Source: Planctomycetota bacterium (lineage in GTDB: Bacteria > Planctomycetota > GCA-002687715 > CAIWVZ01). Taken from it: DNA of 32,489 nucleotides. The DNA is taken from positions 1-32,489 of the forward strand of contig JBGANV010000016.1 in the NCBI GenBank assembly GCA_044222185.1, read 5' to 3'. A program made the position numbers and the translations under genes. The notes beneath the pieces were generated by a model. It was given only the letters and a program-made list of their open reading frames with translations, did not search any database and was not told the DNA's origin. Below, piece by piece: positions 28,524 through 32,489 of the stretch. Position 1 is the stretch's first letter. Every line of letters begins with the position of its first letter.

Positions 28524-28561
28524 CTGACAGGCTCTGCACATGCAATCATGCTCCGCACATG
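28524..28561 (+). promoter_or_regulatory. sigma70-type promoter with overlapping operator repeats for the TA operon
   Basis: CTGACA (28524-29), 17 nt, CATGCT (28547-52), 6 nt, ATG. Direct repeat GCTCYGCACATG at 28531-42 and 28550-61; TGCA-CA-TGCA dyad at 28535-44. Confidence 0.65.
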
Positions 28562-28786
28562 ACGAAGATGAACCAGATCAGGAACGTGCTGGATCGATTG
28601 CACGCGAGGCTGAAGGCGCGAGCCGCCCTTTCGCACATGTCGCTTTCGGACTACCTCCTTGCGCAGTTGAAGGAGACGATGGAACGGCCGACATGGTCTG
28701 AGGTCCGGGACCGCCTGCCGCGATATGGGGACGCCCTCAGTCCTGCCCCCGCTGACGTCATCCGAGCCGCGCGCGACAGCCGGTGA
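28559..28786 (+). CDS. FitA-like ribbon-helix-helix antitoxin
   Basis: QIRNV.D.LHARLKARAA...MSLSDYLL RHH pattern; GTGA overlap with the PIN toxin gene. Confidence 0.85.
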   Translation: MTKMNQIRNVLDRLHARLKARAALSHMSLSDYLLAQLKETMERPTWSEVRDRLPRYGDALSPAPADVIRAARDSR

Positions 28787-29172
28787 TCGACGTCGACGCA
28801 TCCGCCGTCCAATTCGTCCTCCGGACCGCGTCCGCCGAGGCCGTCGCCGATCGCATCGAGTCCGCCAACGGCGTCGTGCATGGGCCTCACGTATCGGACG
28901 TCGAGGTGCTGCACGTCCTGCGCCGCTACGACCGCGAGCGGATCGTCGACTCGTCACGGATCCGAGCGGCCCTCAGCACGTTCGGCGACCTCACGATCCA
29001 TCGCCACGAGCACACCATGCTCATGCCGCGGGTCTGGGAACTTCGCGCCAACCTGACGGCTTGCGATGCAACCTACGTTGCCCTGGCCGAGGCGCTCGAC
29101 GTCCCCCTGGTCACGTGCGACCAGCGGCTCGGTCGAGCCGCTGGCATCCGCACGAACGTCGAAGTGCTCTGA
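28783..29172 (+). CDS. vapC: VapC-family PIN-domain toxin
   Basis: VDASA, VEVLHVLRR, RVWELRANLTACDATYVALAEAL..PLVTCDQRL; acidic tetrad present. Confidence 0.9.
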   Translation: MIDVDASAVQFVLRTASAEAVADRIESANGVVHGPHVSDVEVLHVLRRYDRERIVDSSRIRAALSTFGDLTIHRHEHTMLMPRVWELRANLTACDATYVALAEALDVPLVTCDQRLGRAAGIRTNVEVL

Positions 29173-29184
29173 CGCGAAACCCGT

Positions 29185-30393
29185 TCAGGGCTTCTTCGTC
29201 GGCATCTCGTCGAGCAACTTCTCGACGGCCTTCTCCATCTCCTCGCCTCGGAGATTCTTGAAGCGGATGACGCCCTTGTCGTCCAGGATGTAGATCGTCG
29301 GCCAACCCGACACGTTCCACGCCTTGGCGATCTCACCGCCACCGGGGCCGGCGAAGAAGGAGCGCCACGTGATCTTCTCCTTCTTCGTCACCTCGCGCAG
29401 TTTCTCGGCCGTCTCATCGGAGTTCACGCCAACCAGAGCGAACGGCTTGTCCTTCAGCTTCTCCACGAGCGACCGCTCGTGTGGGATCATGGCCCGGCAT
29501 GGGCCTCACCAGAATCCCCAGAAGTCGAGGACGACCACCTTGCCCCGGAAGTCGGAGAGCTTGAACTCCACTCCGTCGGCGTCCTTGCCGACGATGTCCG
29601 GCGCGGTCTTCCCGATCGCGAGGTTGCGGATCTCGAACAGCTCGCCCTTCGCCATGTCGGCGAGTGAGCCATCACCATACGGAGGCTTGACGTCGCCGCC
29701 GCCCTTCACGACCTCTTCGTAGAGGGCTTCGGCGCGAGCCTTCGCGTCGGCGACGTCGAGAGTCTTCAGCCACGCGACGGTGTCGGCGCCGAAGTACTCC
29801 TGGTATCGCTTGCTCGCCTTCGCATCGGCGTCGGGCTTCTGAAGCGTTTCGGCGGGGCCCGCCATTCCCATCAGGAGGGCCCCCTTCGTCCATTTCGCCA
29901 TGACGCGCACGGAGTCGTGCGGCGTCTCGGCGAGGACTTTCTCGACGACCTCGAGCGTGCCCTTCGTTCGGTCGTAGGTGAGGTCCATGCACCAGCGGCC
30001 GATCGTCGTCGACTTCAGGTGATGCGCGAGGAACGTCTCGCGCACCTTCTCCTTGTCCACCTTCTCGTTGCCCTGCTGCTGGATCCACAGGAGTGCGTCG
30101 GCGGCCGCTTCATCCTTGGGATTGGCGTCGACGAGCACCCACAGCTTCTTCACCTGCGGTGCGGGGGACGGATACTCGGCACCGATCTTCTCCCGTTCCT
30201 CGTCGGTCTTCGCTTCCTTGTACTTGGCGAAGAACGCGGTGCGGGCGTCCTCGAACTCCTTCTTGACGGCGTCGACCTGCTCCTTTCGGTCGCTGGTCGG
30301 CGCGCTTGCGGGCGCCTCCTTCTTGTCCTGCGCCCGGGCGACGGGCGCAGTCATCAGAAGGAGAGCGATCGCGGCACACGTGGCTTTGATCAC
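29185..30393 (-). CDS. Exported TlpA/thioredoxin-like oxidoreductase, predicted selenoprotein (UxxC) with N-terminal helical domain
   Basis: ORFs 29506..30411 and 29185..29490 share a frame, joined by TGA-GGC-CCA-TGC-CGG-GCC, giving VVVLDFWGFW-U-GPCRAMIPHE; also GKTAPDI, WPTIYILDDKGVIR. GTG start at 30393 with AAAGGAG RBS and signal peptide. Confidence 0.88.
29464..29508 (-). promoter_or_regulatory. Putative bacterial SECIS element following the in-frame UGA
   Basis: mRNA reads UGA GGCCCAUGCCGGGCC AUGAUCCCA CACGAGC-GGUC-GCUCGUG: 7-bp perfect stem with a G-initiated 4-nt loop starting 32 nt after the UGA. Confidence 0.7.
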
Positions 30394-30526
30394 GGCTGGG
30401 TCTCCTTTCACGGGACCCAGGTTCTACGAACGGGCGACGTGTTTGGCTCCGGCAGTCCACATTTCCACGTGAACCGAGCCGCTCCATCACCCGCCTCGAT
30501 TCGGCGCGGCGCCCGAAAAGCGCACC

Positions 30527-32349
30527 TCACTTCTGCCAGAGCAACCGGTGCAGCCACGGCTGCGGCGGTGGCGTCGTTCCCGTGTCTGCACGAGCGTCGA
30601 GCCCCTGCGCGAATACCAGGCGCTTTGCGGCGAGCGGATCCGGTTCCGTGACGTGGACGACCTCCGCGGTCGGGATCGTTTGAAGTGACATGACCAGATT
30701 TCTCGCGTCTGTGCTGTGGAACAGGTCGTTCGCCGGGAGGTGCGGCTGCGCGCCGGCTGCGAGTACGTGCCACATCTCATGCCCGAAGATGTGCCAATTC
30801 AGACCCGGTGTATATACCGGCGCCCCCGGCCCCATGATGACCGGGGCCATCCCCATGGCGCACCGGCCAAGGATCACCACGTTGGCTCGCGGATCGGGGG
30901 TGGGGGTCGGTTGGTAAGACTTGCCGAGCGCCGTTGGCGTCACCCAATCCACGTCCAAAATGAACACGTCGACGGCGCTCGGGTCCCATCCCGCGTAATT
31001 CAGGCAGAGCACCCACATGTCCCATGACGTGGCATCCGTCGGTTGAGCGGCGACCGGAAACAGGGACCAGCCGAGGCTCGCTGGCGGAGTACCGACGATG
31101 CTGAAGTCTTGCGTGATGTTGGCGCGGAATGGAAGCTCGCGTCGATTGGTGACGATCAGGAAGACGGTTGCCCCGACCGTCGGGACCGGAAAGACCTCTG
31201 CCAGGAACCCGCCCTGAGCCGCCGTCCTTCCGTTGATCGTCGCTGCAACATCGTTCACGAACGCGTCGATCGGGGTACCCGCCGTGAAATCGACGGAGAT
31301 GTCGACGTTCTCGATCTGGCCGACGAGCGTTCCCGAGCTCGCCACGGTGGTGATGGAAGTTGGGACGGCGATGAGGAACGCGTTCTTGACGGGGGCCAGG
31401 TTCATCGTGCTCGCCGCGGCAGCCCGAAATCCCACCTGCGCGAGGTCCTCGTTGACCCAGGTCACAGCCTGAGCATAAGGCCACGGCTGTCCCGGAAGAC
31501 CAAACATCCGCAGACTGACCGTCCGAATCGCGTTGTCGCCGGACTCGGACGGCGGCCGGAAGACAGGAAGTGACCGGGATGCGAAGACACTGCCACCGAT
31601 CCTGAGGGTCGCGACGACATAGTCCGCCGAGTATGCCTCGGTCGCGGTGACCGGCGGGTTGTCGAGGCGGACGAGTCGCGTGTGGATCCCGCCGACTCCG
31701 TCGTCGATGCCATTGGAGACGAGGCGTATGAAGTTCGTTCGAAATGCGCTGGCACCTCCCGAGATACCTGAGACCATCGGGTACTGCGCATCGCTTCGCT
31801 GGGTCGCCTGCAGCCCTGGGATCATCACGGCAATGTTCACCTGAACGTTGCTGCTGGGGGCCAAGCCAACCACTTCGACGCGGAAGTTGTCGGGGTCACC
31901 CGTAGGGGCTGCGTCAAAGACCAGCGGCGTCGGGAACGTGCCATCGGCGGCCGCGTTCGTCAGCCTGACAGTCACCATCTCGCTGACCTCGAGCGCGGCA
32001 GCCGCGCCGTACAGCGCTTTGGGAGCCGAGTTGTCTCCGAGGAAACGAAGCCCGACGACGGTCACTGACACGACATCGCGGCACATGAACCGGGCCGTCG
32101 CAGGGTTGCTGTAGACCGCACAGTGGATGAGGGTCTGACCGGGACTCCGTCCCTCGACCCAGTAGGTCAGCGTCCCAGCGCTCGTGAAAGGAATCTGTCC
32201 CCCGTTCGACAACTCTCCGGTCTTGTCGGCATTGGTGAAGATCTTCACGCCGTCGGCCGGGAACCAGCTGAAGCGCAGACGGGACTGACCCGAGGGCGGC
32301 GCGAACGGGAGGACGACTCGGAGTTCTTTCAGGTCGTGTTCGGCGAGGT
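30527..32349 (-). CDS. Large protein with C-terminal HExxH zinc metalloprotease domain; N-terminus missing or interrupted
   Basis: HIFGHEMWHVL...PH and downstream NLVM (Met-turn-like). The frame stays open upstream of 32248 (DNLAEHDLKELRVVLPF...) up to the putative IS junction. Confidence 0.68.
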
Positions 32350-32489
32350 TGTCGGTTCCGGAAAAAATGGCGGTGTAATTTCCGGAAAATATGGCGGTCG
32401 TCGTAGAGGCAAGCCTCGACGCTCGTGATGTTCGCCCTTCAAGGATCGCCGCAGTGGCGATCGCGAAGGGATCGGAGGATGCACGACGT
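32350..32489 (+). mobile_element. Putative IS21-family terminus (probably left end), truncated by the window edge
   Basis: Starts TGT; two 19-bp repeats TTCCGGAAAAWATGGCGGT at 32356-74 and 32380-98 (period 24, 1 mismatch); possible ORF start ATG 32479 (MHD...). Confidence 0.6.

Follow-up and report, generated by a model that had tools for sequence, protein, structure and literature searches.

Exported bacterial selenoproteins have precedent. Characterised members of the TlpA, ResA, and CcmG/DsbE proteins are re-reduced by CcdA or DsbD, and proteins with a DsbD_TM domain are the usual class of electron donor for such reductases. Selenoproteins of TlpA-like type with selenocysteine (Sec, U) in a UxxC motif are tabulated in a 2026 review (PMC13188914), where they are predicted from Sec/Cys pairs together with a selenocysteine insertion sequence (SECIS). 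Zhang et al. 2006 (PMC1794560), in the portion available, list three selenoproteins named 'Thiol:disulfide interchange protein', in Deltaproteobacteria. The part of Kim et al. 2016 concerned with planctomycete P1 (PMC4807772, S9 Table) gives two split 'thiol-disulfide isomerase-like thioredoxin' candidates, together with a 'peroxiredoxin' and an 'AhpC/TSA' candidate; the nearest NCBI hits of all of these have Cys, and in each of the two thioredoxin candidates the in-frame UGA had led to a call of two neighbouring genes. Here we describe a gene in a 32,489-nucleotide stretch of a Planctomycetota bacterium genome (GCA_044222185.1, contig JBGANV010000016.1, positions 1 to 32,489; hereafter, the window). 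The gene lies on the minus strand at 29185..30393 and is very likely a genuine Sec-decoding gene, whose product is predicted to be an exported thioredoxin-fold enzyme with Sec at its active site. Both this kind of selenoprotein and its presence in the phylum are already in print, and the novelty assigned to the gene when it was first recognized from its nucleotides (the sequence-only reading) was too high, as UxxC selenoproteins of TlpA-like or thiol-disulfide-isomerase-like type had been predicted, Planctomycetes included.

Compared by description with the TlpA-like UxxC selenoproteins in the available parts of the review, the protein has the same TlpA-like thioredoxin fold with Sec first in UxxC, and is, like them, a predicted selenoprotein. 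It differs in having an additional TPR-like N-terminal domain of ~225 residues and a predicted signal peptide, and in belonging to a subfamily that is concentrated in Planctomycetota and Verrucomicrobiota and has a near-invariant SECIS. The available text of the review contains no word beginning with Planctomycet or Verrucomicrobi, and no occurrence of 'signal peptide'. The P1 thioredoxin candidates, also compared by description, come from the same phylum and the same annotation class and have Cys in their closest NCBI hit, but their table entry is 'SECIS present: no', and the SECIS of the present gene is clear. We found no description in the open-access literature of the specific TPR-plus-TlpA subfamily, of its near-universal Sec usage, or of its frozen SECIS, which is not proof of absence.

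Read from 30393 to 29185 with TGA translated as U, the gene is one frame of 402 codons closed by a TGA at 29185-29187. In the frame at 29185-30411 (minus strand, as are all features of the gene) the only internal stop is a second TGA at 29506-29508, set within VVVLDFWGFW-U-GPCRAMIPHERSLV, or more widely within ...GKVVVLDFWGFW-U-GPCRAMIPHERSLVEKLKDKPFALVGVNSD.... This TGA replaces the first Cys of a thioredoxin-type W-C-G-P-C motif (FWGFW-U-GPC) and is the proposed codon for Sec296, at the first, nucleophilic position of U-G-P-C; the codon for the resolving Cys299 is at 29497-29499. We place the start at GTG 30393, giving 402 residues with Sec at residue 296, because a deposited 295-residue product of the same contig (P0003, named as a 'redoxin domain-containing' or hypothetical protein) begins at the same GTG; a Shine-Dalgarno-like AAGGAG (30402..30407), read from the sequence, precedes it with an 8-nucleotide spacer. 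A protein of 402 residues whose sole in-frame stop falls at the first Cys of WCxxC had been proposed in the sequence-only reading, and the minus-strand translation and the start shared with P0003 bear this out. The plus-strand reading of the same interval is a meaningless Arg/Leu-rich frame and was discarded. Across the genome, TGA closes 2865 of the 3474 stop-to-stop open frames of at least 500 codons; because it is the ordinary stop in this organism, recoding could act only locally.

The TGA is not an assembly error. It is spanned by contigs of three DNA runs from three other studies: run X2 over 29324-29692 with two mismatches, run X3 over 29202-29562 with none, and run X4 over 29431-29850 with one, the sole X4 variant listed in the span being at 29674. 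No variant is listed at 29506-29508, and these independent contigs thus give no sign of the TGC or TGT that the sequence-only reading had named as a refutation. A contig from a metatranscriptome library (X15, 29385-29548) also spans the TGA, with one unplaced mismatch; we do not count it as expression evidence, because such libraries can hold DNA.

The TGA is strongly conserved. A six-frame search of 40 relatives and the gene's own genome gave matches in 38 of the 41, and nearly all strong matches hold exactly one TGA. It occupies the same column, within ...DFWGxW-U-[GPS][PAS]C, in all 26 tblastn stretches from 20 loci of relatives. When those 20 loci and the own genome were scanned for W-U-x-x-C in six frames, 48 hits were returned, 29 of which pass a D[FY]WGxWU filter (25 from relatives and four own-genome copies, including this gene). 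Of the remainder, three belong to distant E[FY]FxYWU paralogs, and the other 16, Arg/Ser-rich frames that arose by chance, were dropped. All of these family members (29/29) share the column of the TGA, and codons +1 to +5 retain G-P-C-R-A while using 3, 4, 2, 3, and 3 synonymous codons; that these residues are kept despite synonymous variation argues that translation continues past the UGA.

Broader samples give similar results. Among 201 evenly drawn genomes of the phylum, searched with a Cys-form query (P0018) at a threshold of E ≤ 1e-45, 38 have matches, and 60 of the 61 matches listed contain a TGA, with none in the other. Thirty loci from this sample yielded 29 family members in 28 loci, with two loci giving no row; the exact hairpin described below is present in 27 of these 29 members, its core is kept in one, and it is missing in one. 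A pattern scan of public genomes found at least 121 stretches with W-U-x-P-C and the hairpin module. By title, 80 of these loci comprise 65 from Planctomycetota lineages, eight from Verrucomicrobiota, four from other phyla, and three unclassified. All but one of the 80 (79) have a frame that runs open from end to end of the locus and contains just one TGA. The Verrucomicrobiota-labelled loci with the exact module are from metagenome-assembled genomes (L042, L060, L062, L066, L067, L071, L095, and L111), and L043, L048, L058, and L109, also with the exact module, are labelled Paceibacteria, Bacillota, Proteobacteria, and Alcaligenaceae. The occurrence of the module in metagenome-assembled genomes of Verrucomicrobiota and other phyla could reflect mis-binning, mislabelling, or horizontal transfer.

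These distributions bear on whether the gene is a nonsense pseudogene, in which mutation of a Cys codon to TGA inactivated a TlpA-like gene whose downstream part is now decaying. A single base change makes TGC or TGT into TGA, and databases do hold the product as a truncated protein of 295 residues. However, the TGA is shared by every family member and by nearly every strong match listed across 38 genomes of the phylum sample; the downstream frame is open, under amino-acid constraint with synonymous variation, and almost all public loci with the module are open through the TGA; the downstream parts of the homologs show no frameshifts or stops; and the full thioredoxin domain is modelled at predicted local distance difference test (pLDDT) scores above 90. 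The probability of a pseudogene is vanishingly small, and on the alignments the idea is effectively refuted by conservation. The sequence-only reading had also allowed for close homologs that all have Cys and lack a hairpin, but the close homologs overwhelmingly have TGA and the same hairpin.

The hairpin, which we propose as the SECIS core, is at 29464..29481, and consists of a 7-bp stem (CACGAGC/GCUCGUG) and a GGUC apical loop that overlap codons for H-E-R-S-L-V. The structure CACGAGC-GGUC-GCUCGUG starts 24 nucleotides past the UGA, with the loop starting 31 nucleotides past it. On its own it folds with an energy of -12.1 kcal/mol (z = -3.44), and one of 200 dinucleotide shuffles folds as well; it is present in both the minimum free energy (MFE) and the centroid structure of its 72-nucleotide context. 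Bacterial SECIS elements are described as having a loop of 3-9 nucleotides, a stem of 4-16 bp, a G in the first or second position of the loop, 16-37 nucleotides between UGA and loop, and an MFE of -7.5 kcal/mol or below (PMC13188914, Fig 2 legend). The hairpin lies within each of these limits, with a 4-nucleotide loop, a 7-bp stem, G at loop positions 1 and 2, a spacing of 31 nucleotides, and an MFE of -12.1 kcal/mol, and the sequence-only reading's G-loop hairpin at a SECIS-compatible distance thus agrees with the published bacterial model. No hairpin of the SECIS kind is found behind the true terminator at 29185..29187.

Codon usage within the hairpin differs from that around it. The exact 17-nucleotide hairpin core is present in 21 of the 29 family members from the relatives and the own genome, and among these 29 the hairpin codons are frozen, with His as CAC (25/25), Arg as CGG (21/21), Ser as TCG (21/21), and Leu as CTC (22/25). 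Conserved residues elsewhere are free in their codons: four each are used for Gly (-12 and -3), Val (-9), Pro (+2, +8, and +21), and Ala (+23), and Arg at +16 is encoded by six codons among 15 sequences. The nucleotide freezing in the hairpin is, judging from these alignments, a constraint at the RNA level.

The genome, a 7.08-Mb assembly of 16 contigs that is 93.8% complete, also encodes the Sec machinery that the sequence-only reading had predicted, with each component scoring above its curated cut-off. These are tRNA-Sec with anticodon TCA (called tRNA-SeC by ARAGORN; C1:1632625-1632718; 74.7 bits, cut-off 47), selA (C1:1631186-1632544; 487 bits, cut-off 268), selB (C1:529551-531440; 330 bits, cut-off 242), and selD (C14:427704-428624; 371 bits to TIGR00476, cut-off 125). 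The tRNA-Sec gene follows selA after ~80 nucleotides, in the same orientation; selB shares their contig at a distance of over 1 Mb, and selD sits on a different one. We note that selD carries one in-frame TGA and is probably itself Sec-containing. Among the 41 genomes (40 relatives and this one), selA is found in 36 and was not found in G023, G027, G031, G033, or G034, which are 91-99% complete; in four of these five, the matches listed are solely stop-free.

A different possibility is that the UGA is read through as Cys, Trp, or some other residue, either by near-cognate decoding or in a reassigned code. One homolog, P0042, shows W at the column (FWGDWWAPC), which is probably a translation-table artefact, and Cys misincorporation at Sec codons has been reported in other systems under selenium limitation. 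This explanation is nonetheless extremely improbable: TGA is an ordinary stop, both in the long open frames of the genome and at the end of this gene, the distance is right for the conserved hairpin of SECIS type, the Sec machinery is complete, and TGA forms co-occur with selA.

Relationships between Sec and Cys forms, which the sequence-only reading had suggested pursuing through homologs with Cys or TGA at this column, were found: the family members have TGA without exception (29/29), and Cys stands there in 86 of the best 120 hits in the database. The latter are among 89 hits with an internal motif (86 Cys, two Ser, and one Trp). Nineteen other hits end exactly at ...DFWGxW and are truncated Sec forms, including this gene's own product, in accord with the splitting by gene callers that had been anticipated; 12 hits are of other kinds. 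The closest Cys form, P0018 (372 residues, ~43% identity), is built in the same way, its motif region being FWGFWCGPCREMIPHERSLV. Within the own genome, the thioredoxin domain finds 19 places, with TGA at the column in seven, Cys in 10 (mostly FWATWCGPC), and Tyr in one; the column is not covered in the remaining one. The seven TGA copies comprise four close DFWGxW-U copies with the same hairpin and three distant E[FY]FxYW-U-[GP]PC copies, and those other than this gene are at C1:395620-395988, C1:1682773-1682483, C4:240620-241027, C7:47192-47632, C14:22281-21835, and C5:71196-71393. The three distant paralogs have different hairpins at a similar distance (GUCAACC-AGUU-GGUUGAC, for example).

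Tandem duplicates of the gene are present in seven of 48 relatives' loci, two of these being the same place. At least one of the 12 hits of other kinds, P0004 (495 residues), derives from an open reading frame (ORF) that opens just past the TGA in the first of two tandem copies and continues into the next, where the redox motif is degenerate (YFQGNRYSPGR) with neither CxxC nor UxxC. This suggests that there are tandem arrays that include inactive copies.

The full-length protein was modelled with AlphaFold2 (39 sequences) at a pLDDT of 92.5 and a predicted template modelling score of 0.85. The N-terminal 30 residues are disordered (pLDDT ~50), and residues 34-257 (29623..30294) form an all-helical domain of 12 helices with pLDDT above 90, resembling a TPR-like alpha-alpha repeat and corresponding to the large helical N-domain of the sequence-only reading. 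Residues 258-396 (29206..29622) constitute a TlpA/ResA-like thioredoxin-fold domain, identified by Pfam, Protein Data Bank (PDB) profile matches, and Foldseek, with the fold itself spanning 268-396 in the model. This domain, which shows the insertion of ResA/TlpA type, superimposes on ResA (4nmu_B) with a Foldseek E value of 4.2e-10, a TM score of 0.87, and a root-mean-square deviation of 1.9 Å over 139 columns, and other ResA, CcmG, and Etrx (Etrx2) structures are also in the Foldseek list. The PDB profile matches include 2lrn (3.7e-28), ResA 4nmu (2.4e-26), and TlpA 1jfu (3e-21), and TlpA 4txo is matched too. When the 295-residue product is modelled alone, pLDDT is 36-69 from residue 261 onward (the C-terminal ~35 residues) and below 50 for 283-295. 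In these models, then, the full-length protein folds and the truncated product does not complete its thioredoxin domain.

These models also bear on the proposal that termination at the UGA is dominant, with read-through marginal, such that the functional product is the 295-residue helical protein, perhaps accompanied by a separate C-terminal protein. An ATG at 29490, six codons past the TGA, does open a 101-residue ORF, and Sec insertion in bacteria competes with RF2 termination. Against this, both the thioredoxin fold and the redox motif would be incomplete in either piece, the C-terminal ~35 residues of the shorter product model poorly, G-P-C-R-A between the TGA and the ATG is conserved with synonymous changes and is hence translated, and the frozen hairpin would have no purpose. 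We regard dominant termination as very unlikely, and Sec decoding to yield the 402-residue protein as the better account.

Placement of the helical domain is less specific. Pfam has no match on the first 260 residues, there is no PDB sequence match before profile position 225, and Foldseek gives no match to the domain at E ≤ 0.001. VIA-align matches have Z scores from 11.0 down to 8, the highest being with a designed toroid and those with TPR proteins ~9, all under the background of ~13 that the tool states for helical repeats, and the ESM Atlas returns solely truncated clusters of this same family, under the name 'peroxiredoxin family protein'. We therefore rejected a specific family name for this domain, its similarity to TPR-like alpha-solenoids being generic at best. 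Inspection by eye suggests a Sec-type (secretory) signal peptide at residues 1-21 (MIKATCAAIALLLMTAPVARA, followed by QD; 30331..30393), with a basic n-region, a hydrophobic core, and an A-x-A site (A-R-A/Q-D), all common to the homologs, 16 of which show no variation at P17 and Q22. Export by this route is accordingly a prediction from the N-terminal sequence.

The C-terminal ~130 residues match the Pfam families Redoxin (PF08534; 74.6 bits, cut-off 26.6), AhpC-TSA (PF00578; 73.5 bits, cut-off 26), and Thioredoxin_8 (PF13905; 57.1 bits, cut-off 27). The best NCBIfam rows are ResA (NF002854; 78.7 bits, cut-off 170) and TlpA (NF047696; 63.6 bits, cut-off 230), both below cut-off, and by these scores the protein is a family-level relative of TlpA and ResA and not an equivalog of either. 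Among NCBIfam models for thioredoxin-fold selenoproteins, NF041054 (ResA-like WAxxUGC) scores 36.8 bits against a cut-off of 300, NF053656 (TUGYCR) 19.3 against 100, and NF045694 (TsoB) 16 against 805; the motif here, W-U-G-P-C, differs from those of the WAxxUGC and TUGYCR models, and no model of NCBIfam release 20 matches the protein above cut-off. It is similar to TlpA of Bradyrhizobium, ResA of Bacillus, and CcmG/DsbE in its fold, in the position of the W-C-x-x-C motif, and in extracytoplasmic targeting, which here is predicted, but differs in having Sec in place of the nucleophilic Cys and a predicted soluble helical N-domain in place of a simple membrane anchor. Also, in comparison with TlpA and ResA, the gene has no context of cytochrome-c or Cu-centre maturation genes.

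The Pfam scores raise the question as to whether the protein, while a real selenoprotein, is a peroxidase or sulfenate reductase of peroxiredoxin type, or an oxidase or isomerase, and not a TlpA-type reductant fed by DsbD or CcdA. The AhpC-TSA score is nearly that of Redoxin, homologs are named 'peroxiredoxin' as often as 'thiol-disulfide isomerase', and Sec is described as favouring peroxide chemistry in the review passages available (PMC13188914). The W-U-G-P-C motif, however, is that of thioredoxin, TlpA, and ResA and not the P-x-x-x-T-x-x-C/U of peroxiredoxins, the best solved relatives are ResA, TlpA, CcmG/DsbE, and Etrx, and the NCBIfam ranking also places ResA and TlpA first. A peroxidase or an oxidase/isomerase thus seems unlikely, with a small but real probability, and we favour a TlpA-type reductant.

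As a reductant of this type, the protein would act as follows, its chemistry, location, electron donor, and substrate being proposed by analogy with its family. What the computation itself shows is the reading frame, the position of the UGA, the SECIS, the Sec machinery, the conservation, and the fold. The hairpin 24 nucleotides downstream of the UGA at 29506-29508 would recruit SelB·GTP·Sec-tRNA(Sec), such that this UGA is read as Sec, and the UGA at 29185-29187, with no such hairpin behind it, would terminate translation. The signal peptide would carry the 402-residue selenoprotein across the inner membrane, and the TPR-like helical domain would probably select partner proteins. In the mature protein, the selenolate of U296 would attack a disulfide (or sulfenate) in an envelope substrate, C299 would resolve the resulting mixed selenenylsulfide, and the oxidised U-C pair would be re-reduced, most likely by a membrane electron transporter of the DsbD/CcdA type. 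A DsbD_TM protein encoded in the genome (C7:834867-835496; 93.1 bits, cut-off 27.1) is a possible electron donor.

Several observations weigh against Sec decoding, or temper the support for it. The sequences compared are kin and paralogs and not independent samples, and we found no experimental report of selenium in the protein or in family members in the literature passages available. The exact hairpin is missing in eight of the 29 family members, mainly in the window's own taxonomic family, and these eight gave no convincing common alternative fold or obvious substitute. Where the hairpin is present it is invariant and there are therefore no compensatory changes, so its support comes from conservation and not from covariation. 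H-E-R-x-L-V is also common in the Cys forms (as a consensus), such that part of the conservation acts on the protein, and the Cys-form control for codon drift is weak, as it consists of one stop-free DNA (G173, n = 1) that encodes HHRELV and not HERSLV. The overall energy of the 72-nucleotide stretch is unremarkable (z = -1.54; 13 of 200 shuffles are as good). An Rfam scan of 29300-29650 at E ≤ 10 gave nothing at the hairpin and four matches to miRNA models at chance level (E ≥ 1.6), a null result that says little because Rfam holds few bacterial SECIS models. One selA-negative genome, G027 (91% complete, 5% contamination), has one weak TGA-bearing thioredoxin-fold match (C177:2556-2906). Finally, no neighbouring gene is conserved, with an upstream ORF of 653 residues, a PIN-domain protein, and an ORF of 825 residues having no hits in 48 relatives' loci, and there is therefore no operon-based clue to the substrate.

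Members without the canonical hairpin include a subgroup with UGPC[VR]..[LI]PHEKEMV (L035-L039 and L188; from the window's own family and others), in which no convincing alternative SECIS was found.

We consider it possible, but on balance doubtful, that proteins with DFWGxW-U-[GP]PC...HERSLV form a distinct family of exported TPR-plus-TlpA reductases in Planctomycetota and Verrucomicrobiota, one that is almost obligately Sec-dependent, with several paralogs per genome and a SECIS frozen at the nucleotide level across two phyla, and that is systematically truncated in databases and captured by no curated model. Were this so, these bacteria would rely on a supply of selenium for thiol-redox homeostasis in the envelope, and the family would rank with the most numerous of those exported selenoproteins that environmental bacteria have. 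This gene extends a known class and leaves the present view of bacterial selenoproteins as it was; it is of interest chiefly for the correction of an annotation error that is widespread, and for a selenoprotein family in the two phyla that is clean, abundant, and predicted to be exported. Gene callers routinely cut such genes short: 18 further hits among the best 120 are deposited in truncated form, and at least 121 loci carry the same UGA and hairpin module. With a dedicated model, many Planctomycetota and Verrucomicrobiota proteins would regain their active-site halves. A selenolate nucleophile is thus predicted for the cell envelope of bacteria that, by the labels of the sequencing runs, occur in activated-sludge and bioreactor metagenomes, which points to extracytoplasmic redox chemistry dependent on selenium, and the near-invariant hairpin, as a clean natural SECIS from outside the usual model organisms, could serve reporter and SelB-binding studies.

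The gene is flanked in the window by ORFs of other kinds, large unannotated ones among them. Convergent with it is a VapBC-like pair at 28559-28786 and 28783-29172 (both plus strand; the ORFs overlap by 4 nucleotides), in which a FitA-like ribbon-helix-helix antitoxin, matched at E = 2.4e-5 but short of the Pfam cut-off, is paired with a PIN-domain protein scoring 38.6 bits. Directly upstream, an ORF at 30527-32488 (minus strand) of at least 653 residues runs off the window; it has no Pfam hit, and contains an H-E-x-x-H string (HEMWH).

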